Under the pieces are notes generated by a model. It saw only the letters and a list, made by a program, of their open reading frames with translations, did not search any database and was not told the origin of the DNA. A stretch of 64,000 nucleotides of DNA from Malacoraja senta. Lineage: Eukaryota. The position numbers and the translations under genes are program-made. Shown one piece after another: positions 7,302 through 59,045 of the stretch. The number at the start of each line of letters is the position of its first letter. Within the stretch, counting starts at the first letter, position 1. The stretch spans positions 16,432,001 to 16,496,000 of the forward strand of contig CM075988.1 of the NCBI GenBank assembly GCA_038087875.1, in the 5' to 3' direction.

Positions 7302-8019
7302 TAAATGATAGGGGCATCTCACAAAAATGTGATTTTATCTTAAAGCTACTTATAATTACCTGGGTGTTATTATAAAGCAACAGCCAATCTCAGAGAAAGG
7401 TACTCACAATGTTATTGGTGTGGATGTGATCCAAGTAACTGAGCAATCAATAACAGTTTTGAATTCTCGAGAATGGTAAAACAGTATTATTAGCTAATTT
7501 TTAATTCACTTCAAACATTTTGCAGAAAGTAAAATAAAGATTAGAAGCATACACATGAAATTAAAACAGATCCTAAACATTTAAAACTGGAATTGTGAAA
7601 TTATTGGCCGAGGAAATGATAGTTCACAAAAGATTAGAGGTTTAAGGTCAGAGATGTTGGTAAATAGTAATTATGGCTTACTATGCTGTTTAAAACTCAC
7701 ATCTCAATCAACAACGTAACATTTTTAGGGTATTTTACAGCCAGAATAGTTGGCACACATTTGGAGATCCTATCAATTTATGATTATACTGGAAAACCCA
7801 GCAACCAAGCTTCCTGTAGACACAAGTTATCTCAGAGAGTGAGGTCTGGAGTTCCTACCTAATTACACGTGGTTTCTCCAGCTGTTGCTGTGAAGCTTTC
7901 TCCCTGATAATGGTGAGCACTGAGAGCCTCGTTGTTATTCTCAAAGCAAATTCTGGTTCTTTGTTTTATCAATTTGTCTTGTGTATGAATGGTAGAGTAA
8001 GTACCATATGATTTCTTCA

Positions 8020-19129: not shown

Positions 19130-19183
19130 ATGCTGGCCACTCTGATGGCAGTGTTGTTCCTTATCACCAGAGCAGTTGCGCAG
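19130..19183 (+). CDS. Candidate first coding exon encoding a signal peptide MLATLMAVLFLITRAVAQ
   Basis: ATG with A at -3, hydrophobic core, AxA cleavage motif, consensus donor CAG|GTGAGT; phase 0, matching the 23109 exon. Confidence 0.55.
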
Positions 19184-19937
19184 GTGAGTCTAACAGCATA
19201 AGTAACAATTGCTGTTAATAGCTGTGTTAAACATGATCTTTGCATCAATGTCATCTGTTTTCAGAAAAAAATAACTATTCACCTCTTTCCCTGATTCTAC
19301 CCATCCCCTCCCCCCCCACACCGATCAATCAAATGTACCGTAAGGATGAGGTTTTGTGATTATAAGGTCTTAGCTTGAACCCAGAACTGCGATCAGTGAA
19401 GTGATCTCGGATAAGTAGCATAGCTTCCGAAAGATATTGTGATCAAAAGAAAACCTATTATGGTTCATACCTAGCACTGTGACTTCTTATGAAAAGAGTG
19501 TGAATAAAGACATCTAGTGTGAATATAATGGTATTTCAGTGAAAGCAAGCTATGGAATTGTTCCAAACAGAGCAAGGTCTTTCTATATATTTCCGACTGT
19601 CTGCGCCACCTGTTATCCCCGGAACCACTTCCTTATCAAGGTCAGCTTTTTAATTAGAAAAATGTACTTTAATCGTGATAAAAAATATATACCAAACAAA
19701 AACTGCAGAACTCTTAATGTATTCTGAGTGTACATTCAATATTCAATTAGTAACTCAGTGGGTTCCTTAACTCACTGGAGAAAAGGACAGGTGATGTTTC
19801 AGGTTGAGACCCTTCTTCAGACTCCAGACATCTGCAGTTCCTTCCTACAAACTTCCCTTAAAGTCAGCCAGCCAGCCAGCCAAGAGCAATGTTTATAAAG
19901 TGGGATATTTTATGATTTACGTACTCTCTGAAATTTA

Positions 19938-20034
19938 TGTTGAGGTCGGAGTCGGGACTCTTTTACCGACTCCGACTCCAGCAGCACCAAAATTGCTCCG
20001 ACTTCGACTCGACAACTCCGACTCCACAGCCCTG
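19938..20034 (-). mobile_element. End fragment of a non-autonomous DNA transposon (hAT-like)
   Basis: Minus-strand terminus CAGGGCTGTGGAGTCGGAG with (GGAGTC)n subterminal repeats; the other end was not found. Confidence 0.5.
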
Positions 20035-20239
20035 TTCTGCATTGTACACAACAACAGAAAGTCCAAGACTTTATTGGTGGACGCAGGAAATGAAAGAATT
20101 TCCTGCCACACCGTCAGGAGGAGAATCGACTGATAAATCGATTGCTGCCAAATCACAATAATCAATCTCCATTTATCAATTAACAAAAAATTGACATGAT
20201 GGTGAAAGTTTGCCTACCATGGTTTCAAAGTCAGCTGTT

Positions 20240-20748
20240 CTAGTCACCCATCCAAATGAAGGGGATCATTACATTGGAAAGGGTGCAGAAAAAAGATTCA
20301 ATAGGATGTAACCCGAGCTTCCGGGTTTAGGTTATAGGGAGAGGTTGGATAGGATGGGACTTTTTTCATGGGAGCATAGGATGCCGAGACCTTATTGAGG
20401 TGCGCAAAATCATGAGGGCATTGGTTAAAGTGAATGTTCACAGTGTTTTCCAGGGTAGAAGATTCTAAAACTAGAGGTCATAGACTTAAGGTGAGAGTGG
20501 AGTGATTTAAGGGGCAACATTTTCACACAGAGTTGGTACTTCGTATCGGGAATGAGCTGCAGGAGGAAGAGATAGTAATGGTTAAATGACTTTTCAAAGA
20601 CATTTAGACAGATATATGGATAGGAGAGATTTAGGAGGTTATGGGCCTAATGCAGGGAACGGAACTATCTTAATATGCCCACTTGGTCGACATGGACAAG
20701 GTGGACCAAAGGCCTAGTTTTCATGCCATTCTGCTCTATGAGCCTATG
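20240..20748 (+). mobile_element. Old CR1 LINE 3' fragment
   Basis: LERVQ...SYRERLDR.GLF...KTRGHRLKV-like sequence; similar fragments at about 27470, 28000, 38560, 39225(-), 41825(-), 43225 and 53610(-). Confidence 0.8.
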
Positions 20749-21559
20749 TTCCTCACCATCATGCAGTACTTATCCCTTGTCATTTGACAAATTTCATATA
20801 TGTAATATTTGATGTATTTTTAATTGGCCTAAATATGCAACACAACCTCAAGTAATTTTTTAGACAATTTAGACTTGAGATTCAAAAGGACTTGCCGGCA
20901 TCCTCTGGGTCTCCGATTTCCTAAGTGTTGAATGTAATATAAGGTATTTTGTCTTCAAATGTGTTTTAAGTTTTTGGCTGGTAGAGATACCAAATGCCTG
21001 ACACGACCTCCTGGGGCTAGTAAGTAAATCTGGAAACTAAAAGAAAAGCTTGCTCATCGTAAGACCACCAAAAATTGTGCAGATGATTAAAAACTGTAAA
21101 ATAGTTGTAGTAGCAGTTTATCAGTTGTAACAGTGTTTTCAGTTATCACTTGGAATGCCACAGTGGCAGCTACCTCATAGAGCCAGGGACCTGTTCCTTG
21201 GGTGCTGTCTGTGTGGTGTTTGTTCATTCTCCCTGTGATCGGGTGGGTTACCTCCAGGTGGTCCAGTTTCCTCTCACATCCCAAAGATGTGTGGGTTTGT
21301 TGCTTAATTGGCCACTGTAAATTGCACTTAGTGTGTCGGGAGTGGACGAGAAAGTGGGATAACACAACTAATGTGAACGGGTTGGCATGGACTTGGTGGG
21401 CAGAAGGGCCTGTTTCCATGCTGTATCTCTAATTTAAACTAAACTAGGCTGAGGTACAGATTTTGTAGGATTCACAAGCCTAATATGATTGAGCACCTTC
21501 GGGGGGAGAGAGACGCAGCTATTTTACACTAGCTTATCTCACCTCTCTTCATAGGTAGA

Positions 21560-21929
21560 CACAACCTGGTGCAATCCATACACAATTATTGGATACTGTC
21601 TACAAAATTAAATAATTACAATGGAGGTGATGTTTAAGAAAGAACTACAGATGCTGGAAAAATCAAAGGTAGACAAAAATGCTGGAGAAACTCAGCGAGT
21701 GAGGCAGCATCTATGGAGCAAAGGAATAGGTGACGTTTTGGGACTCGACCCGAAACGCACCTATTCCTTCGTTCCATGGATGCTGACTCACTCGCTGAGT
21801 TTCTCCAGCATTTTTGTCTACCTTTGATTTTTCCAGCATCTGTAGTTCTTTCTTAAACATCACCTCCATTGTAATTATTTAATTTTGTAGACAGTATCCA
21901 ATAATTGTGTATGGATTGCACCAGGTTGT
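21560..21929. repeat. 370-bp inverted repeat (Penelope palindrome plus mirrored flank)
   Basis: ACAACCTGGTGCAATCC... is mirrored by ...GGATTGCACCAGGTTGT; centre at about 21745. Confidence 0.93.
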
Positions 21930-22595
21930 TTGTGCAGAATGTCCTTGTGGCACTGCCCACCTGGATCGCCAGAATAGATTGGCAGAACTCAATTAATTCT
22001 TTCAACGTAATGGCAGCACCTCTAACAATGAGGCACTCCTAGAGTGCTGCTCTTAAACCTCCATCAAGAGAATCTACTTGGGATGAGACTTCAACTCCCA
22101 GTCTGACATCTTAATTGAACAACCAAGATGGGACCAGAGGAGCAAACGAAAAATGTCTAGCCCTATCGCAGTGTGAACAGATCATTGCTGATTATTAACG
22201 TGCTAATTTTCTCAGTTGATGGTGTTACATCTATTTGAGCATTTCGGTGAGTTGGTTTAAAAAAAAGTATTAAGACCAAGAAGATTTTTCATGGCCAAAT
22301 ATTTAATGGGTGATTATGTTGAAAGAGCATTTATTAGCATAATGACATCAGTAATAAATGCCGGCTCTTTCAACGAAATCAAGGGCCACTCACACCACGC
22401 ACATTCCCTCTTCTCCCCTCTCCATCGGACAGAAGATACAGAAGCACCTACCAGATTCAGGGACACCTTCTTTCCCACTTCCATTAGACTATAGAAGGAA
22501 CCTTTCATGAACCAATGGTGTGGTCCCGATCTCCCCACCTGCCTCGTTGCAGACCATGCACTTTTTTAATCTCCCCTTCCTCTATAAGTCGGTGT

Positions 22596-22660
22596 AGTTA
22601 TATAGATAACTATATAACTATATAGATAACTATATAACTAGATTAGATATAACTAGATTC
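22596..22660. repeat. AT-rich short tandem repeat
   Basis: Repeated TATATAGATAAC/TATATAAC units. Confidence 0.75.
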
Positions 22661-23108
22661 TTGATAACAACTAGAGAGCAGTCCTGAGCTACTATCTACC
22701 TCATTGGAGACCCTTGGATTATCTTTTATTGGACTTTATGTTGCACCAAATGTTATTCCCTTTATCATGTTATTCCCTTTATTCCCTTTATACACTGTGA
22801 CTGGCTTGATTGTAATCACGTATTGTCTTTCCGCTGGCTGGTTAGCCAACAAGAGCTTTTCACTGTACCTCGGTACATGTGACAATAAACTAAACTAAAC
22901 TCGTAATCTCACTATATTCTCCACTCTGGTTATTTTCTCTTTGCACTACTTGTTGATCTGTACTTGCGTATCGCTTGATTGTAATCATGTCTGGTACGAT
23001 TTGACTCGATTGCATTCAAAACACGTTTTTCATTGTCTTTTGGTACCGGTGACAATAATAAACCAATACGAATAATGCCCATTCTTGTTATCCTGTGCCA
23101 TTCTGAAG

Positions 23109-23219
23109 ATTGGGACCAGCTTTTACCGGCAGGAGCCAGTGCACTACCAGGTGAACCAACCGCTGCCCTGGAAAGTTCAGAACGTCAGCCGCAATCGAAG
23201 ATCCAGTCGGGTCGATGAG
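23109..23219 (+). CDS. Candidate internal exon IGTSFYRQEPVHYQVNQPLPWKVQNVSRNRRSSRVDE
   Basis: Pyrimidine tract plus AAG acceptor, GAG|GTAAAA donor; 111 nt, open in phase 0, GC3-rich codons. Confidence 0.55.
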
Positions 23220-26200
23220 GTAAAAGCCATTGTTCCTCTCAGATTATAGATTGATTGCTGTAAAAATGTGCACATAAATCGCGACCACTGCTAAAATAGA
23301 CCACCAACGTGCTCTGATCAATGTGAGTTCAGACTCTAAATTCTTCTTGTGTGAGTACAAAAGCTTAAAAACACTTTTCATCAGGTTTAGGAACGGCCTC
23401 TTCCCCGAAACGACCTGTCATATGCTAAGGTCGTAGTCTCGATCTCCCAACCTACCTCATGTACTATTCTGCTTCTGAGTGTTTAGTTTAGAGACATAGG
23501 CCCTTCAGCCCTCCGAGACCACACTGACCAGTGATCCCTGTACACTAGCACTATCCTACACACTCGGGACAATTTTATAATTTTAGCTTAGCCATTTAAC
23601 CTACAAACTTGTACGTTTTTGGAATGTGTGAGGAAACCGGACCATTCTAGCGAAAAGCCACGTGGACATGGGGACAACGTGCAAACTCCATACAGACAGT
23701 ACCCGTAGTCAGGATCAAACCCGGGTCTCTGGCACCGTAAGGCAGCAACTCTACCACTACGCCACTGTGCCTCCCGAGTGTTTTTGGAGGTTTGGGTTAT
23801 GTTAGTTTGTAGGTCTGAATTACGTATGCTTGTTCTTGATTCAGAGGGCCGTGAATTTCTGCAGAGAGTCAAATACTACAATCTAAACTGGTGCCCCATG
23901 TGCAGCTCTGGGGGAATCCTGTTTTGTCTTCCAGCTGAGGTGTTGTTTGCTTTCTGAAAGGAGCAGCGGCAGTCCTTGGACGAGGAGTTCATATGTTGGT
24001 GTTTGTATGAGCTGCTTGTCATCCTTCCTCCATCACAATAGGAATATGAAAGTTTGTGCTTGGATCTGTGGTGCTGTGTGGGGAGAAGTGAAATGGTCCC
24101 TCAATCAGAAGATAGAGAGATACAGCGTAGAAAAAGGACCTTCGGATCACTGAATCTGTATCAACTATCGACCACCCATTTACATATCCTCCATTGATCC
24201 TATCATTTTTATTAGCAGATCAAACAGCACAGTAGTTTAGTTTAGAGATACAGCGCGGTAGCAGGCCCTTTGGCCCAGCGAGTCCACACCCGCACATTAA
24301 CATCACCCTACACACACGAGGGACAATTTTACATTTACACCAAGCCAATTAACCTGCAAACCTCTACGTCTTTGGTGTGTGGGAGGAAACCGAAGATCTC
24401 GGAGAAAACCCACCCAGGTCACAGGGAGAATGTACAAACTCCGTACAGACAAGCACCCGTAGTCAGGATCGAACCTAGGTCTCTGGCGCTGTAAGGCAGT
24501 TGCTCTACCGCTACGCCACCGTGCCGCCACTACAGTAGCACAGGAACAGGTCCTTTGCCTCACCATGTTTGCACCAATCATGATGCAAACTCAACAGAGA
24601 CAACACCTGAGATGAGGATTGAATCGGGTCTTTGGTTTGGGTTTCGGTTTATTCTGGCCACGTGTACCCGAGGAACGGTGAAAAGCTTTGCTTTGCATGT
24701 CATTCCATCATATAAAGGGGAAGATACAGAGTGCAGAATATCATTCTCTGCATTGCAGCGCACCAGTTCTATGGACAAAGTCCAATGCCTGCAAGGGGGT
24801 AGAGGTGAATCGGACAGTACCTTAGTTTATGGAAGGACCATTCAGAAGCCTGATTGCAGAGGGGAAGAAGACCAGATTGCAGTCTGGTGGTGTGGACTGT
24901 AAGATACTGGATCTGCTCACAACATTGTACCACGGACTTCAGAGTAAAACTGAATGCTCCTCTGGGCTGCCGTGCTGCTATACGCACGATTCCAATACTG
25001 AGAGAGTGCTAAAACGTTTCACCAGTTCTCTTGTACGTTGATGTTAAAGGTTGGAGTTTGAATTGTCCAAACATTTAGTCTGGGAATTTCTTATCGACTT
25101 ATTTCCTCGCAGACAGAATTGTAAATGACTCTTAAGAGTTTGGGATTGACAAATGTCATGATTTGTGAACGCACGGTGGACATTCTGTTCCTGACTCACA
25201 CATTAGCTGCTGCTGTGATGTGCGAACAGCACTGTACAATTGAATATATTATTGATATACAAAAGGTGCAAGATCTAAGATGAAAAATATCCTGCAGATT
25301 CCTTGTTTATTCAGACACTGAGTGGAAAGAGGCATGTTGTATTGTCACACAATTTAATTCTCCAGTGTATTCATTCACAGATTGCGGGCAGTTACTGGGC
25401 AGCATAATGTGGCCAAGGAATCATGTTCGGGGAGACTAAATAAGCGCAGCAGATTGCCTTCCCTGAAGCAAATCTGATTTTTATGACATTGTAATAAGTT
25501 CACAGCCACCATTATTGATGCTAGCTTTTTAATCACAGATTTTCTTAATTCATTGAATTAAAAACTCCCTACATGCGCAGTGGTGCAATTTGAACTCCGA
25601 ACCTTAATCCAATAACATAGCCTCCTGTGTACCATAGCCATCCGAGCAATATGCCGCGATTTAGTTTAAAATCCGCACAATTGGCAAAACCTTGAATGCT
25701 TCTGAGTGGAATTGAAGTGAATAGAAGAGAGGAGGAAAAAGAGTGCATTGAAATTAATTAAAAATGACTTGCATCAAAACAAAATTCACCTCGCTGCGCA
25801 AGCAATCCACCCATCCTCTTCATCTCTGCACCTGCTCCAGTATTTGAAGCCCTGACTAGAGAGATTAAGGCATTGTCGATCCTCTGCAAATAAAATACAG
25901 GGACGTGGAAGCCATCTTGATATTCAGATAACACGATCTCCAACGATGACAGTAAAATAACCAGAGCAAATGAGTAGGACCCCGGTGTGGAGTGTCGGCT
26001 TGTTGCTTGACTGATGCTATTTCCAGCCAGCGTTGACATATTTATAATTCCTTAAACCCTGCTGTAGCTTCCACCATCTGTGCATCTCCAGCAGAAAAAA
26101 AAGTGACCTTCCTGTGCCAAGGGAAAGCAGCGGAGTCGAAGGAAAAGGAAGGCAAAATTTGCTGGCTCATAAGGAATGTTGCCATGTCAGAACTTGACAG

Positions 26201-29200
26201 CTGATTAGATATTCTGACTATCGGTTCCAAGAAAGAGTGAACTCCTTCCACAAAGCCAAAAATCAACACCATCGTTGGGCCTTAGAAGACCAAACCCTTT
26301 CTGACTAACTTATCAATTAACTTTTCAGATAATGTTTTGCCACAAAAAGCTTTTGCTTAAAATAAAAATCTCTAAGAGGAGAATGAATTCTTATAGGGAG
26401 GTAAATGGATATTGGTATCAGTAGGATTAAGAAGTCAGTCATAGTCATACTGCACAGAGACAGGCCCTTCGGCCCAATGCATCCATGCCGACCAAGATAC
26501 CCTATCTAAACTAAACCCATTTTTGCCACATTTGGCCCATATCCCTCCAGACCTTTCCAAGTGTCGTTTAAATGCTGTTGTGGTGCCTATGAAAGTCATT
26601 TTTTTGTTTTGAGGATAGAATTTCTTTTCTTCAAACATATTAATTCATCGGCTTTACTATTTTGGGAAATGCCAGTTTTTATTAGCTTAGATTAGTTTGG
26701 AAATAGAGCATGGAAATAGGTCCTTTGGCCCACCTAGTGCATGCTGACTATGTGGCAACAGCTCTACCAGCTACACCACACCTTGCCCTCCCAATACGGA
26801 AACTGAATATGTCAGATTATATAATGTGTTCCTATTATTGCAGCAAAGATGAAACCAAAGAGTTAGGTTTGTATTGGCCGTTTGTATATTCCTAATTTTC
26901 ATTGCTCCACCATTATTGGCTGCAACTTCACCTGCCAAGTCCTAAACTCTGTAATTCTCTCTAAATCTCTTTGATTCTATCCTTTCCTTTAAAGATCCCC
27001 CACTATTTCCTCCAGGTGAACTTTGATCTGCCTTCCTGCTGACCTGAATGGTTTGCATCCATTCTTGTGATACAGATTGGGATGTTTTAGAGTATTAATA
27101 TAAACATTATTGTGGAATATTGCAAACCTTCTTGGCATCTTCTGAGGCAATTTGTTCTAAATTTCCAAAATGTTAGGTTTAATTCTTCTTGCAAAAGCCT
27201 CTGGCTAAATATCATGTGGCAAGTATTATCCCTTTTTTTTTAGCTCTTCATTTGCCAAATGCTTAATTGATCCAAATCTTTTAACACATCTTTTGCTACA
27301 TCCCCTGATTCTAAACTGCTCTTAATTTGGTGTGCCACCATCATTAACCGAATGTGGCATTCTCCACTGCATGAAGCGTACGAGAATGGCATCATGTTGC
27401 AACTTTATACCTACCTGTTGGCAGCTCTGGTCGCAAGACAAAGGAGATTCACATGGAGGTGGCTGAATTGGAGCATAGCAGTTATAGGGAGAGAATGGAT
27501 TTATCCCTGGAGCAAAAAGTGACTGAAGATGACCTGATTGAGGTAATGAAGGGAATGAATTGGGTGGATAGTCACAACCATTTTTGCGTGGCGCGAGTGA
27601 TTAAAACATGAGTGGCAAAGCTACAAGCTGAGATTTAGGAGGTTTAGAGGGGATCTGAGCGTGGGTTTTTGTTTCGTACAGAGGGTTACTTTAGACTTTA
27701 CTTTAGGTGGCGCTGACCATGGCTGCCTCACCAATGGTCTGTCTCATCTTTTTCCTTCTTTGTTGTTTTTGGTTTGTTGTAAAATGTATGTTTTAGAGTA
27801 CTTTTAGTTTTGTTTTGTGTGGGGGTGGGGGAATTAAACAAAAAAAATTTGTTTAGGGCAACTTTTTTCCGTGTCGTATCTCCGTCCGTAGTCACGATCA
27901 AACCCGGGTCTCTGGCGCCGTGAGGCAGCAACTCTACCGTTGCGCTACCGTGCTGCCCACTAACATTTCAATTAGAGGGAGAGTATGGAAAGGCTAGGGT
28001 CGAAAGAGACTGTAGGTGACCTGATAGAGGTGTAGAAAGAAATGAGGGAATGAATCAGGTGGATAGGAAGAACCATTTTTGAATGGTGGGAGTGATTAAA
28101 ACATGAGTGGCATAGCTACAAGCTGAGAGGTAGGAGGTTTAGAGGGGATCTGAGTATAGATGTGACTTTAGACTGAGCATAGGCTTTAGAGATACAGCAT
28201 GGTAAATTTGAGAATTCCTCTTAATTCTCCTTCTGCCTCTTTTAGTTGATCCTATTCCTTGCTCATCTGCTTTCCTTTTAAATGCATCAATGCCATTCAC
28301 TTCAACTGTTCATACTGCACAGAAACAGGACTTTGTCCCCGTCCGTCCTCCCCCCCCCCCCCGCCCACTCCACCCCCCAGACCATGGTAGTTATCTATAC
28401 TACCTATCCATTTACCTGCATTTGGTGGCTGGTGATTCAAGTGCCTGTCTAGATGCTTCTTAAATGTTGTGAGAGTAATTGCCTCCATGTCCACAAGCAG
28501 TGCATCTTAGAATCCAAGCACTTGCTTGCAAGGGAAGCTTAGAGGCGCAGCGGTGGAGTTGCTGCCTTTACAGTGCAAGAGCTGGGGTTCGATCCTGACT
28601 GTACAGAGTTTGTACGCTCTCCCTGTGTCCGCATGGGTTTTCTCCGGGTGCTCTGGTTTCCACCCACATTCCAAAGACATGCAGGTTTGTAGGTTAATTG
28701 GCTTCTATAAATTGTCCCTAGAGTGTAGGATAGTGCTAGTGTAGGGGGTGATCACTAGGCAATGCGGACTCGGTGGGCTGACGGGCCTGTTTTTTCATGC
28801 TGTATTTCTAAAACTAAAACTAAAGCTGAATACAACCACTTCTCTCACTGCGCTCTGTCCCTGGACTCCAGATAGAGTCTAATGGTCTTGCTTGTTCTTG
28901 CTTGGATCACCCTCCATTGTAGTGGGTCAGACCTGGCATCGGTTTGGTAGCCCTCATTCATTCAGAAGGCATGGACTAAGTTTAAAAAAAAATTGTTTAA
29001 TGTTTTTGATAAATCTAAATATATTTATATATTCTCCGTTCAATTGTAATCGTCAGAGGCACTTAAACCATTAAAACGCCTTGCTAGTTTGATACGGACT
29101 CCCAGCCTTGCCTTCTGCCAAAGACCAGCTGGGCCTTTTTGTGTGTAGTAGCTCTGCTCCATGCTGCCTGAGGTCTGATTGCCCGACTCGAGTGTGTGTG

Positions 29201-30014
29201 GAAACTCAGTCAGATCGCTCGTCCGTGTCCAGACAAGATGAATATTGATATGGGGAGGAGTGCAGGCAGTGGAGTAGATGATCCAACCTATTGTATTTAC
29301 TCTTCCATTACCACATTCGGTAGCTATGAGAACATTGTCATGTCAACAAGAATATAGAGAAGTAATATCTATGTCTATGTTTAAAAGATTTGAGATAACT
29401 ACTGCTGTAGACAAATATCGGTTTTAACGCAAATGTCACCACACATCCCATAACATAGCTGAGCGTATCTCATTCCGAAATATCCCAGTGACTATGATGC
29501 AGACTAAACCTTTCCATTGGATGAGGTAGGCTGGAGACCCCACTATTTCACCAATCAGTACCATACGAATAAACTGTAATTGATTTGACAAAGCTGAATC
29601 TTGAATGTTATTTCTGCTGCACCAGTTTGCTGAGAAGGGAGAGAATTACATTTATTCACTCTAACCACCACAAAAGAAAAGTCCAAGAATTGCAACACAT
29701 TACGTCATAGCAGAAATTCCTCCATTCAAGATTATTGGTTATGAATTTGAGTTGCAACTTCTTTTGAAAGAAATGTTCTTTGGTCTAAATGTATAAAATC
29801 AAAATCAAAGCATGTTCTAGATTTATCTTATCTTGTAAATAACTTTAAAAAACAAGAGGAATGAAAAGCACTTCACCACTGCAAGAAGCACCCTTATCGG
29901 TTTTAAGATGTGGGTAACAGACAGGGCATCAAACTGATTCTTGGTTAAGAGAGTGGTCACTATATCAGCATAATTTACAATGACCACTTATACAGACTCT
30001 TCTTTTTTCTTTAG

Positions 30015-30073
30015 GAAGGACGGAGGCTCTCGATGAAGCCGTGTTAATCGCTCGAAGGGCAACACAGCAAGAG
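30015..30073 (+). CDS. Candidate internal exon of the plus-strand small gene (reading frame ambiguous)
   Basis: Strong acceptor CTCTTCTTTTTTCTTTAG and donor GAG|GTAGGT; 59 nt of non-repetitive, GC-richer sequence. Confidence 0.55.
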
Positions 30074-30679
30074 GTAGGTTTCCAATTTCCACCTGGCAAC
30101 CATTCAGAATTTGAACTGCAACCATCTGCCTGAGCTTCTGAGGGCCGTCTCCAAATGTCCACACGACTGTTCAGAGAGCCACGGGATCTGGAGAGCGCGA
30201 TTACCAACTCAAACCCTTTGGAAGACTGGTGCCCTCAAATATTTATTTTTTAAAAGTCACCGCTTTTATATAACACCTTGCATGTCCCCTTCAGAACAGA
30301 CAAAAAGTATTTCAAACCTAATGAAGTACTTTTAAAATGAGTCAAAGTGGAAGATGCAGCAGCCATTTGTGCCTTGCCAGCTCCAACAAACAGAGATGTG
30401 ATAATGGATAATCTGCTTCAGTAGGATTGATAGGGGGGCACACAGAGCTCTCTGATTTTGGTTCAAATGGGAAGCCTTTAGTTTAACATCTAATCTTGGA
30501 AACAGGGCAAGCCTCGCTGGCTGGACTGATCGGAACAGCTACTGAAACTTAAGTCAGTCTCAGGCTTGGGGACAGACCCGAACTGGTTGTTTGCTGCACT
30601 GGAGCTTCCGTCTAGAGCTTCGTAGTTTAGTTTAGAGATATAGAGTTTAGCCTCTGTATTCAATCGCTGGATACCACCA

Positions 30680-31582: not shown

Positions 31583-32858
31583 TCAAACTAAAATCAGCGT
31601 TACTGTCATTTCTACTGAAAGTTAAGAAATGTTCATAATCTGTTTATAATATTGAGCAGTCTTGGGCTGTATAACTTATTGCCTTAATATATGAATGTGA
31701 TCTAGGTTACCTGGACTAATTCTAATCTGTAACAGCTGGTGTAGGCTCTATAACTGGCCAACTGTCTCTTTATTTGAGAAGGAAAAACAAGAGTGAAGCA
31801 TTGGTAGATTCTATATGATGGGTTAAAATGTAAAAAGTACCAGTAGAGGGAGTACTCAGTCAATCAAACCAAGAGTAGGAAGAATTTCCAAAATGTTTCC
31901 CCATGATTGGTCAGAGATGGTGCAAGGCTCACCTGAGCCAAAGTGAGCTGTGCTGCCCTTTGTGTGTGAGTTCAGGTGTGGTCTTGGACAGATGCAAGAG
32001 CATCACCAGAGCAACATTGTTTATGTGTTTGAGACTTGATAAAATAAACCAGTTCAATATGTGGTGTCGGAAGAAGGAACCTTTAAAAAGTTCAAAATGC
32101 TTCCCGCCTCCAACCTTCCTCTTCCTCCTGGTCTTTTATCCTCGACGTGGCATCAACTACCTTGACTTCTCCATGTGCCTCACCCATTCCAATCTCACCC
32201 CACACCCCCCAATCACACAGGTCTCTGCTCTCTCCCCACACCAATGCCGTCCTTGCCATCAAACCCGCGGACAAGGTTGGTGCTGTTTGGTGTTAGTTCT
32301 AATTTTAGATATGCAGGGAGGAAACAGGCCCTTCGGCCCACCAAGTCCTCACCGACCAGCGATCCCCGCACATTAACACTATCCTACACACATTAGGGAC
32401 AATTTACACTAATACCAAGCCAATTAACCTACAAACCTGTACGTCTTTGGAGTGTGGGACTCCTCTCCCTCACCTCTTTATAATGGCATCACGGAATCTT
32501 CGTCAGTACCTAGAGCAGTGTTAATGGCAACTCTGGACGAACTGCAGAAACAAAGGCAGGAGTTTTAACGTTAGGCCCAATTAAAATCACGGGCCAGTTT
32601 GTTGTGAAAAGCGAGACTGGTACTAAAAGTTAGACCGATGCAAATGACGAAGCCATCTCCATCCATGTGGCTCTTCTACATACATGCTCAGACATTAAAT
32701 CTTGTGCATCCAATCATTTAGATTGAATTTTCTCATCTTTAAACTTCGCACAAACTTATCTCGTAGCATCTCGCAGGAGGAAGACATGGATATCACAAGT
32801 TGTGACAAATCCATCACTGTCACTGTATGATCTTAAGTTTCTGCTTGTGAATTTGTAA

Positions 32859-37346: not shown

Positions 37347-37465
37347 GTGTTAAACGTTGGGAAGAAAATATCTTTGCGGAACTCAGCCTGGAGAGTGTAG
37401 CTATGACCATCCAGACACAATACCGGAGATATCAAGAATGCAAAAAGTATGAACAAAATCCATAA
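37347..37465 (+). CDS. Terminal exon encoding a PCP4/PEP-19-like IQ calmodulin-binding motif
   Basis: Acceptor TTTTTGCTTTATGTCTGTAG; phase-1 frame xVKRWEENIFAELSLESVAMTIQTQYRRYQECKKYEQNP*, resembling PCP4 GQKKVQEE...AAVAIQSQFRKFQKKK; AATAAA at 37732. Confidence 0.7.
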
Positions 37466-48943: not shown

Positions 48944-49380
48944 CTACACCAGGGTGTAGGACTTTGAATAGGCTCCTGGCCCCTGCTTCTGTGACCTGCC
49001 CAGTCCAGCCGCGCTCATCTCTAGTAGCGAGTCTCTGGAGCCGCTGATTTTGGTGTGCGCGGGCAGCCGCGATTCGGCGGGGGCACTGGCGCCGCCTGTG
49101 TTGGCGCTGGAGGTGGTCGTGTTGGTGGAGGTGGCGGCGACGGGAGCCGTGGAGCCGGGCACGGTGAGAGTCCTCTGAGGTAAGGTGGCCGTGGCATGCG
49201 GGTGGATGGGCGGCTTGCTGTTGGGGTCGAGGGTCATGTGCCGGCCTTGTGCCTGGTATGCTCTGGCCACGCTCCGGATTGACGCTTCCCTTGGCGGCAC
49301 CACGGGGCAAGGGTCGCGGCCATCCGACTTGCGGAAGAATGCATCAGACTTGACGTACAGGGGGAGATTGCAATAATCAC
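48944..49380 (-). CDS. DSCAML1: DSCAML1 last coding exon
   Basis: TTTTACAG acceptor; GDYCNLPLYVKSDAFFRKSDGRDPCPVVPPREASIR...SRDSLLEMS...GAYSKSYTLV*; C-terminal PDZ-binding TLV; these motifs match DSCAML1 rather than DSCAM as recalled. Confidence 0.93.
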
Positions 49381-49494
49381 CTGTAAAATAAATAAATGAA
49401 TCAACGCAAAGGTCGAAACAAATGTAGAAACCCAAGATCACCCGAATGAAACCAATCCAACACTATTGTCCCATTTCACTGAGTGTTTACTTCA

Positions 49495-49880
49495 GTTGAA
49501 ACATCCTATAGATGGGATATGTAGAAAGCATCATATCCAATTACATTACAGCTTGGTTTGGCAACAGCTCTGCCCAAGATTGCAGGAAATTGCCTTGTCC
49601 ATCCCACAGACTAGACTCCCCACCATCATCTCCAACTCCACTCCACGCTGCCTCGGGAAAGCAGCCAGCACAATCAAGGACCTGCTTCACCCCAGTCATC
49701 ACCTCCTGTCCCCTCTCCCATCAGGCAGAAGATACTAAAGCTGAAAGCATGTACAACCAGCTTTGAGAAGAGCTTCTGCCCTACTGTTACCAAAGTAGTG
49801 AAGTGTCCTTCCATAAGCTAGGGTGTAGTCCCAATCTTCTAACTTGCCTCATTGTGGATGTTGGACTTTTTACTATGTAA
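49495..49880 (+). mobile_element. Rex1-like LINE 3' fragment
   Basis: ESIISNYITAWFGN...KAASTIKDLLHPSHHLLSPLPSGRRY; related fragments at 17010-17660(-) and 22365-22900(+). Confidence 0.75.
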
Positions 49881-51044
49881 CTTTAGTTTAGTTTAGAGAT
49901 ACAGAGTGGAAACAGGCCCTTTGGCCCAGCGAGTCCACACCGACCAGCAATCCCTACACATTGACACTATCCGACACACACTAGGGACAAAGTAAAATTA
50001 TACCAAGCCAATTTACCTACAAACCTATACGTTTTTTGAGTGTGGGAGGAAACTGGAGATTCTGGAGAAACCCAACGCGGATCACGGGATGAGCATACAA
50101 ACTCCATATTGAGAAGCCCCCGTAGGCAGTAACTGTTATGCAACAATGCTGTAGAACAATATTCTGCACTCTGATATTTTTCTCTCTGCACTATTTGTAC
50201 CTGTGCTTGGCTTGATTGTACTTATATATAGTATGTAGAAAAAGAGGGGTACCGACCCAAAACGTCACCTATCCTTTTTCTCCAGGGATGCTGCCTGATC
50301 TGCAGTTTACTCCAGCACTTTGTGTCTATCTTTTATGTATAGTATGACTTGATTGAACAGCACACAGCCAAGGCTTTTCACTGTATCTCAGTCCATGTAG
50401 CAGTCGTATAAACCAATATCCAGCTGTAATTATGCCTCAGCTGCTGAGCTTGGTTCTTGGTGTCAGCAAGAGCTTGCACTGCCTGTTGTCCCATCATCGC
50501 TCCTCTCCCCCAGTTTCTATCACTCGCCCAAACACGAGGGGCTATTCACCTACCCTCTGCCACATATTTGGGATGTGGGAGGAAACTAGAGGGGGCCTGA
50601 AGGAAATGTATCAGGTCGCAGAAAGAACATGCAAACTCCACACAGACAGCACAGGAGGTTCGGAAGGAACCCGGGTAATCAACAATCGGGCTTGGATAAG
50701 GGCGATGTCTGGCCTGTAGGCAGGGGGCCGGCAGCAGACACAACAACCCAGATGATCAGCCCTAGTTGAACCAGCGTTGCACACCCCTGAGCCTACATCA
50801 AACAACCTTACCGATTCAGAAAGCCCGCTCAAGACAGAGATTTGTGAGCCATAGGACCTTGCATAAAAAATCCAGTGACATGGATTAGCTATTGGATTAG
50901 TCATTAATTTAAATCAAATGAAGGCAACCAGGGAACAGCAACTCGCAAAAATCTCAATTTAAAACTAGTAATAGTAATGGTAACCATATTGCTACTGGTT
51001 GCCTAAAAAAATGGCTGGGATCGCCAAGAAATCTCTCATCCTTA

Positions 51045-51344
51045 AGGGCCTGTCCCACTTTTCCAAGTTACTCACGAATTCCCCTGAGTTTTCCCCGTGA
51101 TTCAAACTCGGAGATGCCGGCCGTAGGTACTCGGGGCTATTTTTTTTACTCGTGGACATTTTTCATCATGCTGAAAAAACGTCCCGACTTACCTGATGCC
51201 CCAAGTACCTACGGCTACAATATAACGAGCCGCTACGATATATCCACGGACTCTTACGGACTCGCTACGGACATTCTCCGAGTTTGAATCAAGGGGACAA
51301 CTCGGGAGAATTTGTGAGTAACTCGGGAAAGTGGGACAGGCCCT
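51045..51344. mobile_element. Harbinger-type MITE in a DSCAML1 intron
   Basis: TIR AGGGCCTGTCCCACTTT; TTA/ATA flanks. Confidence 0.87.
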
Positions 51345-51891
51345 ATACCCAGTTTAGCCTTTGTGTGACGTCAGAGCACTGCAACATAGCTGAATCTTAA
51401 TGACCTAAAATGGCCTGGCGTGGCTTGTAGTTCAGGGGAGATTATGGGCAGGCAATAAATCCTGTCCTTACCAGTAGCATCTGCATCTCGGAAAATAATA
51501 AATCCCAGAAGTATCTACATTGTTGAGAGTTGGTTTCTGTTGAAGGCTTACTGAGAGTCAATGTGTCAATGTGAAAAACAACAGCCACATATCTGCACAA
51601 ATGCAGACAGCCTGCATCCAAATGGGTGCATTATAAGTGATGTATCGTGTGCATTTTATATTACGTGATAAAATGTTGTTTTGGGAGGTTACGCTCATAA
51701 CTGTAACCATAGTGATACAAGTTAATGATAAATACTCGGAAGCATTGCCTCAGAGCAAGTACGTTTGGAAAACTGTTTATGTCAAGTTCTGTACTCATCA
51801 AGGTGAGGGATGTTAATGCTGGGGGCTGAAACACTTCCTGTCATTTCTACCCAATGTCAGTGGGCCAGCGGTACGGAGGATAACTCAGAAA

Positions 51892-52185
51892 GGGTGGCAC
51901 GGTGACGCAGTGGTAGAGTTGCTGTCTTACAGCGCCAGAGACCTGGGTTTGATCCTGACTACGGGTGCTGTCTGTATGGAGTTTGTACGTTCTCCCCGTG
52001 ACCTGCGTGGGTTTTCTCCCACACTCCGAAGACGTACAGGTTTGTAGGTTAATTGACTTTGGTAAGAATTGTAAATTGTCCCTAGTGCGTATGGGATAGT
52101 GTTGGTGTGCGGGGATCGGTGGTCGGTGCGGACTCGTTGGGCCGAAGGGCTTGTTTCCGCGCTGTATCTCTAAACTAAGCTAAAC
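51892..52185 (+). mobile_element. V-SINE
   Basis: Same family as 56321; other plus-strand copies at about 9315, 21160, 28541, 33517, 34966 and 36611. Confidence 0.87.
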
Positions 52186-53038
52186 TCTCCACGCTGTTCT
52201 ATCAATCCCTGGAAGGGTAAATAAGGCACAGCTTACAAAGTAAACTCAATGTTCCACTCGACTCTCTGAGGGTAGATATAGCACTGGTTGGAGTAATGTT
52301 CCCTCAACACAGTCGGTCAAACATACCCATGGCAAGTGCAGCACAACTTAGGTATGGAACATCTTGGTCCCATCAAATCTTTCCACATAAGACAGAAGAC
52401 GGTCTTGATCATGAGTAAGTCTCCCTGGATCATCCCAGGGCAGTTATAATATGGGTTACATGGTTTAAGGTCCCTCCACACTATCCCATCAAGCACGCCA
52501 AGGGCAGGCAGAAAATGGGTTGGAAACTGAGCCAACTTCCTCTGTCCCATCAAACTGCAACAAGTGCAGCTTAGAATCAACATGAAAATCCCTTCCAACT
52601 TTCCCATTTAAATCCCAAATTCTGCTTATCTTGCCTCAACAACATGTAACAACGCACACACAAGAGACGGGTTTATGGAAAAAGACACAAAGTGCTGGAG
52701 TAACTCAATGGGTTAGATAACACCTCTAGCCGACATGAGTAGGTGATGTTTTGAGTTGGAACCCTTCTTCAGACATTGCAGTCGGGGGAGAAAGCGCTGG
52801 AACAAAACGCTCTTCACTGTACTTAAGTATATGTGACAATAATAAACTAAACTGATATTGCAATCTAGCAAGCTCCAGGAATAAGACCTGCAGTTAGTAC
52901 TCTGTTAAGCCGCGGTACTTTTCCCAGTAGTTTAACATGGACTAGCGGAAGGTGGATTGGAAGTGGAATTCATTGTGGGCTCTGCCCCGAGCGCTAAGGC
53001 CAGGGAGTGGTGAGTGGCGCAGGCCTAGCACTGCTTAC

Positions 53039-53344
53039 CAGCTCGATGGGCGATGGGCACGGCAACGTTCTTCCCTCGGTCGACGTCCTGGGGCTGTGGG
53101 GGCGATGCGGTGAACCGGCAGATGCCAGCCTCTGAGGGCGTGCTCATGGACGTCATGCTGTCAGCGTTATCGTTGGTGCCAGTGGTCATCTGGTCCGAGG
53201 AGCTGTCCGAAATGAAGCACTCGGTGATCTCAAACTTGGCGTGTTGCAGCTGCTCTTCCAGCTTGGCGTGCTCGTAGGCTCGCGCCAACTCCTCGTAGGT
53301 GGAGGAAGCACTCTCCGTGGAAACCATGCTGTTCCGGCCTTTGT
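53039..53344 (-). CDS. DSCAML1: DSCAML1 penultimate coding exon
   Basis: AAG acceptor, GTAAGC donor; [57 protein letters not shown]...VAVPIAHRA; 306 nt, phase 1-1. Confidence 0.95.
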
Positions 53345-55276
53345 CTTGAAAGGAAAAGCAATAGGATGGAAGAAGGTTGTAAGCAAAATAATGGAATCAG
53401 ATACATAACATTGCTTATCATCAGAGATCATGATCAACATGAGCCGCCATTTTCTTTAATCACCATGGATTGGTACAACCGGAATGAGCATTTGAAACAT
53501 ATTCAATGATGATTTTATCAAAATGTGCTGGAGAAGTTTGAAAAGGGGAGAAACGTTGTCGGCCCACAGACAGCAGTTTAGGGTAAGTGAAGGGTGGAAT
53601 GGGTACAATTAGAACATAGAAATGTACAGCACAGGAACAGGCCCTTTGGCCAACAATGTCAGTACTGAACATGACGCCAACTGAAACTAATTCCATCTGC
53701 TTGCACATGACCGGTATCCCGCCATTCCCTGCGTATTCATACACCTATCTAAAAGCCTCTTAAACGGCACAATCGTATCTGCCTCCACCATCACCCCTGG
53801 CAGCGTTTCAGACACCTGTGTAAAACGGTGTAAAAAAACATGCCCCGCACATCTCCTTTAAACTTTGCTCCTCTCACCTTAAAGCTTTGCCGTCTGATCT
53901 TTGACATTACCATTCTGGGGAAAAAGGGGTTCTGACTGTCGACACTATCTATGCCTCTATAACATTCTATCAGGTCTCCCGCAACCTCCAGCATTCAAGA
54001 GAAAGCAATTCGAGTTTGGACGGCTCTTACAAAAGACACAGTGGGAAGAGTGGGCTGTAGGGTCCCGTGAGAATGAGAGTGTGTCTCCCATCACTCAGAC
54101 TAAGGCCGTTGCTGTAGTCTACATTTCAAAATTCAGCAGTAATTATGTCAGTGGAGCTACGGAGTCCAAACTGTGGCCATCTGCACACTAAACTGAGATC
54201 CCATTTCCACCGTTAGAATTCCTCAAATAAGTTCCAGGAGAAATCAGATAAACACTTGAAAAATAAAAGTTGTAAATGGTGTATGATACGAGCTGGGGAT
54301 TAGAGGAGAAAGCTCCTGTACTGCAGAAATCTCCACAATACATTATTTATATTTGCAGAATAAATCCTTGTGGAAGATATCTTTCCTTTAAAAGCATAAA
54401 GGATATCTTGTCGGATTTAATTGAGGAATAATAAGTAAATCCCAAACCCTATGCACTTCAGCCACCGTGCAAGTTGTTAGTCACAAAGCAACAAGGGTGT
54501 TTCTCAGCAAGAATACTGCTGATGAATGTAGAAACAAAGAACTGCAGATGGTGGTTTATACCAGAGATGGACACAGAATGCTGGTATAACTCAGCGGTTC
54601 AGGCAGCATCTCTGGAGAAAAAGGATGGGTGATGTTTTGGGTCGGCTTCTGAAGAAGGGTTCCAACCCAAAATGTCATCTCCAGAGATGCTGCCTGACCC
54701 GCTGAGTTATGCCAGCATTTTGTGTCTGTCTACTCCTGGTGAATTTTTGAACACAGGTTTAGTGAGCTCAGGGCTAGAATTGAGTGCAGCACGTGTGAAA
54801 GGGATTGTGGATCGAATTGCACCATCATTCTAGTTTTGGTACCTCCCTCAAAACATTCTGGAAGGAGTGAACCATCCCTCAGGCACCAGCAGGCCTTGTA
54901 GGAGGGCCCATTGCTGAAAGTAAGAGGCAATGGGGAGGGTGGTGACGATGATGATCACTTGACCAAGCCAGGTTACCCTTGTTCTCACTACATCAAGTTT
55001 CAAAAGCACAGATTTTTTAATTAGTTTAGTTTAGTTTGGAGATACAGCGTGGAAACAGGCCCTTCGGCCCACCGAGTCCACGCCGACCAGCGATCCCCAC
55101 ACACCTACATTATCCGACAATACAAGGGACAATTTACATTTATAGAAACCCAATTAACCCACAAACCTGTACGTGGAAGGAAACCGAAGATCTTGGAGAA
55201 AGGTCACGTGGAGAACGTACAAACTCCGTACATAGTCGGGATGGAACCTGGGTCTCTGGCGCTGAAAGCGCTGTAA

Positions 55277-55574
55277 AGGGCCTGTCCCACCGTACGAGCT
55301 AATTCAAGAGTTCTCCCGAGTTTCCCCTGATTCGAACTCGGAGAATTACAGCAATAGCCGCTCGTAGGTACTCGGGGCTCTCGTGGACATTTTTCAACGT
55401 TGAAAAATCTTCACGAGTCTTCACGAGTACCTGTCGTTAGCATTTACGAGCTGCTAAGAGACGCCCCGAGCTCCGACGTACCCGCTACGTACATTCTACG
55501 TGCTTACCACGAGTTTGATTTTTTTTTTTACTCGGGAGAGCTCTTGAATTACCTCGTACAGTGGGACAGCCCCT
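55277..55574. mobile_element. Harbinger-type MITE inserted into a V-SINE
   Basis: TAA TSD; splits the SINE sequence GCGCTGTAA|GTCAGCAACTC. Confidence 0.9.
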
Positions 55575-56320
55575 TAAGTCAGCAACTCTAACGCTGCGCC
55601 ACCGGTCCGCCCTAATTATTTATTTTGCCGCCCTTTAATGTTAAAGAAATCACAGAGGTGATCATTGGTGGTAAGGCCAGCTTTTATTGGTCATCCACAC
55701 TTGCTCTTAACATGCTGATGGCCAGCCATCGACTTGACCCACCACTGTCCACGTGACCAAGTGTGTTGGTCAGGAGGAAGCTCCGGGACGTAAATATATT
55801 GACAACCATAACGACAGCAAATATTTACAAGTCAGCATGGTGCATGTTTTGGAGATGGTGGAGCTTCTGGACGTGTGTACCCCTGGACTTCTTGGTGGCT
55901 GAGGTTGTGGGTTTGGGAAGTGCTGGTGGCCTGGCCTGGATGTACAACGGCATACAGATGGTTCACACTGCAACCATGGTGGGGGTGGTAGTGGACAGAG
56001 TGATAGTTGGAAGGGTGGATGGGGTGTCCAGTGGTACACTTACCAGTGAATTACTCGGCGAATGAGCTGTCGGAGGTGGTAGTTGAGGCAACAAAAGCTT
56101 TTCACTGTACCTCGGGTACACGTGACAATAAACTAAACTGAACTAGTTGAGGCAGGTACAATCGCAACGTTTAATTTTTTTTTACACAGGTACATGGATA
56201 GGACAGGTTTAGAGGGATATGAGTCAAACGCAGGCAGGAGGGGCTAATGTAGATGGGAAATATTAGCCAGTGAGGGCAGGTTGGGCTGAGGGGCCTGTTT
56301 CCACGCTGTAAGACTAGCTA

Positions 56321-56647
56321 GGGTGGCACGGTGGCGCAGCAGTAGAGTTGCTGCCTTACAGCGAATGCAGCGCCAGAGACCCGGGTTCAATCCCGACTAC
56401 AGGTACTGTCTGGACGGAGTTTGTACGTTCTCCTCGTGACCTGCGTGGGTTTTCTCTGAGATCTTCGGTTTCCTCCCACACTACAAAGACGTACAGGTAT
56501 GTTGGTTAATTGGCTTGGTAAATGTAAAAAAATTGTCCCTAGTGAGTATAGAATAGTGTTAATGTGCGGGGATCGCTGGTCGGCACAGACACGGTGGGCC
56601 GAAAGGGCCTATTTCCGCGCTGTATCTCTAAACTAAACTAAACTAAA
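56321..56647 (+). mobile_element. tRNA-derived V-SINE (HE1-like), full length
   Basis: A/B boxes (GGTGGCGCAG, GGTTCAATCC), V-domain GGAGTTTGTACGTTCTCC...GGTTTCCTCCCA, CR1-like 3' part, (CTAAA)n tail. Confidence 0.88.
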
Positions 56648-56714
56648 GACTCTATGACTTACATCTGGCAATAAATACAGTATAACTTTCAAAATCTTTG
56701 CGGTACAAATCCTT

Positions 56715-58131
56715 AAGAAAGACGGCAGAGAGAAAACAGGGAATTATAGACCAGTTAGCCTGACATCGGTGGTGGGGAAGATGCTGGAGTCAATTATAAA
56801 AGATGAGATAGCCGAACATTTGGATAGCAATAACAGGATCGGTCCGAGTCAGCATGGATTTACAAAGGGGAAATCATGCTTGATTAATCTTCTGGAATTT
56901 TTTGAAGATGTAACTAGGAAAATGGACAAGGGAGAGCCAGTGGATGTAGTGTACCTGACTTTCAGAAAGCATCTGATAAGGTCCCACATAGGAGATTAGT
57001 GGGCAAAATTAGGGCACATGGTATTGGGGGTAGAGTGCTGATATGGATAGAGAAGTGGTTGGCAGACAGGAAACAAAGAGTAGGGATTAACGGGTCCCTT
57101 TCAGAATGGCAGGCAGTGACTAGTGGGGTACCGCAAGGCTCGGTGCTGGGACCGCAGCTATTTACAATATACATCGATGATTTGGATGAAGGGATTCAAA
57201 GTAACATTAGCAAATTTGCAGATGACACAAAGCTGGGTGGCAGTGTGAACTGTGAGGAGGATGCTATGAGAATGCAGGGTGACTTGGACAGGTTGGGGGA
57301 GTGGGCAGATGCATGGCAGATGAAGTTTAATGCGGATAAATGTGAGGTTATATCCACTTTGGTAGCAAAAACAGGAAGGCAGATTACTATCTAAATGGCG
57401 TCAAGTTGGGAAAAGGGGAAGTACAACGGGATCTGGGGGTCCTTGTACATCAGTCTATGAAAGTAAGCATGCAGGTACAGCACGCAGTGAAGAAAGCGAA
57501 TGGCATGTTGGCCTTTATAACAAGAGCAATCAAATAGAGGAGCAAAGAGGTCCTTCTGCACTTGTACAGAGCCCTGGTGAGACCACACCTGGAGTATTGT
57601 GTGCAGTTTTGGTCCCCTAATTTGAGGAAGGACATTCTTGCTATTGAGGGAGTGCAGCGTAAGTTTACAAGGTTAATTCCCGGGATGGCGGGACTGTCAT
57701 ATGCTGAGAGAATGGAGCAGCTGGGCTTGTACACTCTGGTGTTTAGAAGGATGAGAGGCTATCTCATTGAAACATATAAGATTGTTAAGGGTTTGGACAC
57801 ACTAGAGGCAGGAAACATGTTCCCGATGTTGGGGGAGTCCAGAACCAGGGGCCACAGTTTGAGAATAAGGAGTAAGCCATTTAGAACGGAGACGAGGAAA
57901 CACTTTTTCTCACAGAGAGTGGTGAGTCTGTGGAATTCTCTGCCTCAGAGGGCGGTGGAGGCAGGTTCTCTGGATGCTTCCAAGAGAGAGCTAGATAGGG
58001 CTCTTAAAAATAGCGGAGTCAGGGGATATGGGGAGAAGGCAGGAACGGGGTACTGATTGGGGATGATCAGCCATGATCACATTGAATGGCTCGAAGGGCC
58101 GAATGGCCTACTCCTGCACCTATTGTCTATT
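56715..58131 (+). mobile_element. CR1 LINE, 5'-truncated, RT to 3' UTR
   Basis: NYRPVSLTSVVGK, QHGFTKGKSC, SGVPQGSVLGP, KFADDTK and LVRPHLEYCVQFWSP motifs; few frameshifts or stops; (CTATTGT) tail. Confidence 0.95.
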
Positions 58132-58184
58132 GGTACATCCAAGAAAGGGCGGCTTGATCGGACCCTCTGCTGCCCCCCTCTTAC

Positions 58185-58379
58185 CGGTGTCCTGTGAGAG
58201 GCTGGCGCTGTAGCTGTCACTTTCTGTCGCGGTTATTCCATGCTGTGACCCCACAGTTCTCCAGTCAGAGGTCAGGGTTCGGGCAGGGGTGGAGGCCTGA
58301 CATTTGGTCAGGGTCCACTGGCTGGAGTACCTGTTCCTCGTACTGTGGGCCGATTTAACGCTCTTCCTGGCGACTGGAT
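58185..58379 (-). CDS. DSCAML1: DSCAML1 coding exon (not in ORF track)
   Basis: CAG acceptor, GTAAGA donor; NPVARKSVKSAHSTRNRYSSQWTLTKCQASTPARTLTSDWRTVGSQHGITATESDSYSASLSQDT; 195 nt, phase 1-1. Confidence 0.93.
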
Positions 58380-58892
58380 CTGGTGGTAAGCAAAACCAAG
58401 AGACTTTATAGCGTCATCGGGCCTGGCTCCATTCGGCCCAGTGAATTCCTGGCAAACATCAAGTGACTATATTAATCACTTTCTTTCCCTCCCCAGTTCC
58501 CCCCACACCCTCCCCCCCCCCCCCCCCCAGATTCCATCACTCAGCTCAATGCTACGGGTAGCTTACAGTGGCCAATTAACTATCCTCTGCCACTATTTTG
58601 GGATGCGAGACAAAACCGGAGTATGTGAGGGAAACACAGGGGGTCACAGGGAGAAGATGCAAACTCTGTATACAGAGCATTGGAAGGCAGGATGGAACCT
58701 GGGTCTCTGGTGTTGTGAGGCAGCTGCTCTATCAGCTGTGCCACCGGGCTGCCCAAACTGTGTTGGCAAAGGTGTTCTTGTCTCTTCATCACATAACCTT
58801 CTACACCTTCCATGGTTAGCTCCCCCCAGTGTTTAGAAACCAGCAGTGCAGATCACTGACATTTTTCAGCATAGAAAGACCCACATACTTAC

Positions 58893-59045
58893 TCGTGCCT
58901 GGGCGGATGTCCGACATGTCGATCAGCGGCCCTGTGTTCTGGACCAAGGCTGGGTGATGGAGGGACACGCCGGTGCAGAAACTCTGGGGGTTGACCGATT
59001 CATTGAACTCGGAGTCGGTCACTGGGATGGTGGCCTTGTCGTCCC
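58893..59045 (-). CDS. DSCAML1: DSCAML1 coding exon
   Basis: CAG acceptor, GTAAGT donor; GDDKATIPVTDSEFNESVNPQSFCTGVSLHHPALVQNTGPLIDMSDIRPGT; 153 nt, phase 1-1. Confidence 0.94.

Follow-up and report, generated by a model that had tools for sequence, protein, structure and literature searches.

Does a short exon chain in a skate genome, which reads like the precursor of a small secreted peptide, really encode one? The chain lies in a 64,000-nucleotide stretch of Malacoraja senta (NCBI GenBank assembly GCA_038087875.1, contig CM075988.1, positions 16,432,001 to 16,496,000 of the forward strand), which we call the window and to whose positions all coordinates refer. A first-pass annotation, made from the letters alone, had joined exons at 19130-19183, 23109-23219 and 30015 onward into an unannotated prohormone-like gene of no recognised family, with a signal peptide, an N-terminal Gln in the mature peptide, a furin-type site and a G-RR amidation signal. 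We find there a copy, truncated in its third exon, of a conserved four-exon gene; the intact protein is probably a membrane-tethered, kinase-regulated calmodulin binder related to PCP4/PEP-19.

A four-exon gene with a premature stop codon

The ingredients of the three-exon chain are present in the sequence as described: the exons are bounded by GT/AG sites, their junctions are in phase 0, and the 65-codon frame runs to its TAA (Table 1). In a rough splice matrix (not MaxEntScan), used for all splice scores given here, the donors of this chain score 12.0 (exon 1), 7.2 and 9.3 and its acceptors 4.9 and 13.5. However, a donor at 30073/30074 shows that exon 3 is not the last exon and, together with a fourth exon at 37347, that the gene has four exons rather than three.

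Among two candidates of 75-2000 aa, a search with the IQ motif exon retrieved a single protein, the 'uncharacterized' product of Rhinoraja longicauda LOC144608778 (RefSeq XP_078282994/5, 112 aa). Its isoform X1 (P0004) maps to the window in order and on one strand, at 19130, 23109, 30016-30075 and 37346-37462, with within-window E-values of 1e-4, 1e-18 and 7e-4 for exons 1, 2 and 3. Because each exon matches P0004 in order on one strand, the exons are not a product of chance. Identity amounts to 14/18 residues in exon 1, 31/37 in exon 2 and 13/18 in exon 3 read in the conserved frame. The first two exons had thus been placed exactly, but the frame given to the third is not that of the orthologues, which enters at 30019, 4 bases past the 30015 acceptor; a third frame, open up to the exon 3 donor, was ruled out by homology. 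Joined through 30019, the four exons make 112 codons, equal in length to the Rhinoraja longicauda protein and 79% identical to it, with one internal stop.

Isoform X2 of the same gene (P0003) differs from X1 in its first exon only, and this exon too has a counterpart in the window: tblastn finds 83% identity over 18 residues (E 4e-6; match 7862-7915), followed by a donor at 7913 that scores 8.0. The start codon used in Rhinoraja longicauda is ATT here. Translation from the ATG in which the exon ends, in frame with exon 2, would produce a form devoid of the hydrophobic helix. We infer from the homology that the exon may be used in the present species.

Table 1. Coordinates of the gene and of other features of the window.
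Feature	Position	Strand	Description
Coding exon 1	19130..19183	+	54 nt, 18 codons, ending in a phase 0 donor; encodes the hydrophobic N-terminal helix with a conserved Arg at 14
Exon 2	23109..23219	+	111 nt, 37 codons; both ends in phase 0; carries the first RRxS site and the conserved QPLPW core
Exon 3, upstream AG	30015..30073	+	Shifted frame, TAA 30045-30047, 65-aa product
Exon 3, downstream AG, conserved frame	30019..30073	+	55 nt, entered in phase 0 and left in phase 1; holds the second RRxS region; in-frame stop limits the product to 60 aa
Premature TGA	30034..30036	+	In conserved frame; Arg at the same place in the Rhinoraja longicauda protein
Exon 4 (last), coding part	37347..37465	+	PCP4-like IQ motif; stop 37463-37465; acceptor score 12.7
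AATAAA	37732..37737	+	Likely polyadenylation signal of last exon; only AATAAA between 37460 and 39000
Alternative first exon, part seen by homology	7862..7912	+	Matches N-terminus of Rhinoraja longicauda isoform X2
Last four exons of neighbouring gene	48944..59045	-	Tail to tail with this gene
Tc1/mariner element	5275-6901	+	Inverted repeats of ~226 nt, 93% complementary, with inner direct repeats
GC-rich tandem repeat	14525-14689		40-nt unit, 4.1 copies, 94% matches
Small element	7096-7302		Perfect 26-nt inverted ends, 155 nt apart

The copy in the window stops ahead of its IQ exon. Fourteen AG sites lie at 29900-30069; two of them are strong, 30015, which yields the 65-aa product, and 30019, which yields 60 aa. 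Only 30058, with a score of 1.6, reaches the IQ motif in frame, and a transcript that skips exon 3 would have 72 codons and lack the IQ motif. The TGA is also read in DNA run X1, in which a single unbranched contig covers 28850-30689 at a depth of 26.8 with no differing letter. Past the stop, the conserved residues S63R and A91V are altered, as is R90S by inspection (Rhinoraja longicauda numbering); A91 is kept in 59 of 60 family members and is Val in the window. The exon 4 peptide of the window has no Pfam match, unlike the Rhinoraja longicauda protein. Both possible stops lie 26 or 37 nt upstream of the last junction. Under the 50-55 nt rule, stops that close usually escape nonsense-mediated decay, so the truncated product could escape it as well. 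The truncation looks recent, or may be an allele; in this genome the gene is probably either losing its ability to bind calmodulin or already a young pseudogene.

At the level of the family, the gene is neither unannotated nor isolated. It is predicted in many vertebrate annotations as RefSeq and UniRef models called 'uncharacterized', although it has no name and its N-terminal half has no Pfam family. A search with the exon 2 peptide gave 33 matches, headed by the Rhinoraja longicauda protein, of which 29 form one family; P0006, P0015, P0019 and P0021 are unrelated repetitive proteins and were dropped. Profile searches produced 115 matches among 853 candidates, and a further search 252 among 2227, the best 120 of the 252 being listed. 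The matches listed come from a chimaera, sharks, rays, bichir, sturgeons, gar, bowfin and teleosts and, among tetrapods, from frogs, salamanders, tuatara, lizards, turtles and birds. The names listed include no mammal (best 120 of 252, some entries being nameless), which is only a hint that mammals lost the gene.

In a tree of 22 family members and the window copy, with its stop coded as X, the window sequence is sister to Rhinoraja longicauda (support 96/89); a devil ray and then sharks come next, and the supported groups follow known vertebrate lineages. The end branch of the window copy (0.16, versus 0.096 for Rhinoraja longicauda) is not flagged as long. On this sequence evidence the source is likely a skate-like batoid and the window gene a plain orthologue in an unnamed family of jawed vertebrates. 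Its intron positions look old, judging from bird and teleost models that read into introns and leave the family exactly at both ends of exon 2. Intact family proteins measure about 105-118 aa.

Two features recur in other models of the family. The exon 3 acceptor looks unstable across cartilaginous fishes (P0037/P0038, P0069/P0132, P0008), with one-residue isoform pairs in a bamboo shark, a downstream start in catsharks and an upstream extension in a stingray model. In the lizard models P0083, P0085 and P0099, the IQ motif is degenerate and the N-terminal halves are intact, a parallel to the lost tail of the window copy; the calmodulin-binding half may have been lost more than once. The UniRef name of P0013, 'Chloride channel CLIC-like protein 1', is unsupported by its sequence and is likely an automatic mislabel.

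Anatomy of the protein and alternative readings

The IQ exon, overlooked in the first-pass annotation, points to a cytosolic calmodulin-binding protein. When a profile of the family is compared with solved structures, PEP-19 (2N77) is the sole strong match (E 1.5e-5), in the C-terminal region. Counts below refer to an alignment of 60 near-full-length sequences, hand-picked (58 of the 115 matches, plus P0004 and P0037) to the exclusion of fragments, of models with read-through and of the majority of long isoforms. The Pfam IQ model matches 54 of the 60 members at E up to 0.05. The Atlas neighbours of the family include a PCP4 cluster (0.86; a lead only), and P0101 carries the source name 'Calmodulin regulator protein PCP4'.

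Upstream of the IQ motif, R[RK]xS-type sites, which correspond to the consensus of protein kinase A (PKA), are conserved: R[RK]xS occurs in 55/59 sequences, a second R[RKH]xS[ILV] site in 33/59, and the Ser two places after the RR pair is kept in 56/60. Mean pairwise identity reaches 71% in the core (residues 27-44) and 70% in the IQ motif. Mitochondrial uL18m (best E 0.045) and Pfam S1 (E 0.088) match the core weakly, and we put both down to chance. The N-terminus is hydrophobic (hydropathy averages 2.25 over residues 1-13 of 57 rows), and its first 14 residues retain 59% mean pairwise identity from shark to bird, which is high for a disposable signal peptide. Among the 56 rows that start at the shared Met, none has a basic residue at positions 1-12 and 54 have one at 13-18; by the positive-inside rule, such a charge pattern fits an anchor with its C-terminus inside. 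AlphaFold models one helix at residues 2-23, which spans the proposed cut, and another at 88-110, with a disordered region between them.

Taken together, these features suggest the following design. The first 20 or so residues would remain uncleaved and anchor a chain that faces the cytosol; the PKA-type sites would lie in its disordered middle; and the C-terminal IQ helix would bind calmodulin and hold it at the membrane. The alternative first exon may supply an unanchored form. In the present copy, both strong exon 3 acceptors would end the protein, at 65 or 60 aa, ahead of the IQ exon.

A number of observations weigh against this design or against a fixed truncation. With about 13 residues only, the strongly hydrophobic stretch is shorter than expected of a transmembrane anchor, and the AlphaFold model has a pTM of 0.28. 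The IQ match of the Rhinoraja longicauda protein, at 18.4 bits (E 0.0017), falls under the Pfam cut-off of 20.3. A small residue occupies the proposed signal-peptidase site, residue 17, in 30/60 members, and possible convertase sites are common (RR in 49/59, RxxR in 41/59). The 11 positions matching the acidic stretch of PEP-19 hold 0-5 acidic residues, with 4 or more in 14/60. As to the TGA, run X1 may itself be the source of the assembly, contigs drop rare variants, and run X2 misses exon 3; the stop may be the allele of one individual. Identity to Rhinoraja longicauda is alike before the stop (45/55) and in exons 3-4 (42/56), and faster decay of the tail is therefore not supported.

The family might instead consist of secreted precursors, cut near residue 17 and at the RR pair to release a QPLPW peptide of about 27-30 residues, with the IQ tail left as a PCP4-type ancestral relic or serving the unanchored isoform only. 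The truncated form in the window would then still yield the peptide, as exons 1 and 2 are intact here and the stops lie in the range that usually escapes decay. It is also true that the most conserved region, the core, sits between a signal-like start and the RR pair, and that several UniRef members bear the label 'Secreted protein' (automatic labels). Yet Glu (22) or Arg (5) precedes the cut in 27 of the 60 members, and the Gln after it, at position 18, is kept in 37/60 only (Lys 10, Ser 9); the conserved Ser two past the RR pair is what a kinase site needs; and an IQ motif conserved like the core is hard to explain in a secretory lumen. We regard this explanation as unlikely. What endures of the original prohormone proposal is a real, conserved gene for a small protein with a hydrophobic N-terminus; the hormone itself is poorly supported. 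The furin-type motif (RxK/RR) is found in 5/59 members, and the G-RR signal is a by-product of the shifted frame, orthologues reading from 30016/30019; relatives show nothing that corresponds to the final 10 residues of the 65-aa product, among them the G-RR. A G-dibasic motif does occur downstream of the core in 11/59 orthologues (9 at offset 27-31, one at 18, one at 69), but near the offset originally proposed, 17 after the core, it is seen in 1/59, at offset 18. The family motifs are absent from one supplementary file of a zebrafish brain top-down study, an uninformative result.

The 65-aa form could nevertheless be made in this species. Its frame is open, and the pyrimidine tract is followed first by the AG of 30015, which scores slightly above 30019 (13.5 vs 11.8). 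According to PMC2875228, closely spaced AG acceptors can both be used and compete; with such competition, this species may make the 65-aa product even though it is not the ancestral one. That it has become the functional product, a prohormone with furin RNRR and G-RR amidation sites that gained a new function after the frameshift, appears very improbable: its closest relative, P0004, reads the other frame, and the amidated product would be a 7-residue piece without conservation. Conversely, the gene may be functional and full-length, the TGA being a rare or private allele or being bypassed by splicing at 30058 or by read-through. All splice sites, the polyadenylation signal and the overall identity are kept, the end branch is unremarkable, and the TGA site is covered by one run only; but that run shows the TGA in its unbranched contig, the 30058 acceptor is poor, conserved IQ and RRxS residues have changed as well, and the IQ exon of the window retrieved a single protein, from another genus. 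We give this only a small chance. A further combination has a slim chance as well: a two-faced twin of PCP4 on the DSCAML1 side, whose alternative first exons would make either the precursor of a new, deeply conserved QPLPW hormone or a cytosolic calmodulin regulator, and which was lost in mammals and here has dropped its calmodulin half but kept the secreted peptide. The truncated copy of a membrane-tethered calmodulin binder remains our preferred reading.

Neighbourhood and other elements of the window

The neighbouring gene comprises open exons at 59045-58893, 58379-58185 and 53344-53039 and an ORF at 48944-49462. We take these exons to encode the cytoplasmic tail of DSCAML1, a tentative name that our searches did not confirm. 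A scan with one CEP164 motif gave no CEP164-like end. In the portion of bioRxiv 10.64898/2026.04.14.718097 that we could consult, Pcp4 adjoins Dscam in gnathostomes, and the gene named beside Dscaml1 is Cep164 rather than a Pcp4 relative. If the DSCAML1 name is right, the gene described here is likely the DSCAML1-side counterpart of PCP4.

Several repeats share the window. The Tc1/mariner element looks fairly young and contains a 301-codon open transposase stretch (5648-6553) that matches Sleeping Beauty-type HTH and DDE_3 models. The GC-rich tandem repeat generates several long spurious ORFs on both strands. Ends like those of the small element at 7096-7302 seem to flank 32854-33176 and 38208-38515, and the three segments are likely one family of miniature inverted-repeat transposable elements. 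An ORF piece at 11346-11660 on the minus strand resembles the end of a Harbinger/DDE-type transposase, and fragments at 47549-48507, 56658-58056 and 63217-63720 resemble CR1-type LINE reverse transcriptases.

Comparison with known systems

Literature searches, limited to open papers, found no description of the gene; PMC13069148 and PMC8234412 deal with Pcp4 itself. The gene prediction is already in databases, and what is new here is the reading of its anatomy and of its truncation. If this reading is true, vertebrates other than mammals possess a PCP4 relative that keeps calmodulin at a membrane and is controlled by kinases, and such a design has a precedent in GAP-43 but is not known from the PCP4 branch; the gene would then provide the missing PCP4 counterpart in the DSCAM/DSCAML1 duplicated region, and the truncated window copy a natural loss-of-function case.

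Among known systems, PCP4/PEP-19, with PCP4L1, comes closest. Its C-terminal IQ helix can be aligned with that of the family, and the body is disordered in both, according to AlphaFold for the family and to PMC5122967 for PEP-19. The same paper describes how the IQ helix of PEP-19 binds calmodulin while an adjacent acidic stretch, with a Phe30/Ile32/Met34 plug and Pro37, tunes calcium binding. Compared with that description, the stretch, its plug and Pro37 do not appear to be in register in the family, and the Pro register differs from PEP-19 in the 12 rows compared. As the acidic stretch is only partly matched, we infer calmodulin binding but not the same calcium tuning. PCP4/PEP-19 is also shorter (62 aa versus about 112) and soluble, whereas members of the family also have a hydrophobic helix at the N-terminus, the QPLPW core and the RRxS sites; this would make it a PCP4-type IQ protein, by sequence, that departs from the size and solubility of that family. 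Its distribution is different too, in that no mammal is named among the family matches listed.

The Rhinoraja longicauda gene and its 'uncharacterized' orthologues are the same gene as that in the window, and the two skates share both alternative first exons; all those models are full-length, unlike the window copy with its exon 3 TGA and lost isoform X2 start ATG.

Neurogranin and GAP-43 are likewise small disordered IQ proteins, and in GAP-43 an IQ motif under the control of a kinase is combined with a membrane anchor. There, the anchor is a palmitoylation and the phosphorylated residue lies inside the IQ motif, whereas the family has a hydrophobic helix and candidate sites upstream of the motif. 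Neither protein was matched in the Atlas, structure-profile or Pfam searches of the family; neurogranin is also treated in PMC5122967. Amidated peptide prohormones, finally, share with the family a signal-like start, a short conserved core and a dibasic pair, but in the family the marks of cleavage, pyroglutamate formation and amidation are poorly kept, and an IQ motif of cytosolic type is conserved.

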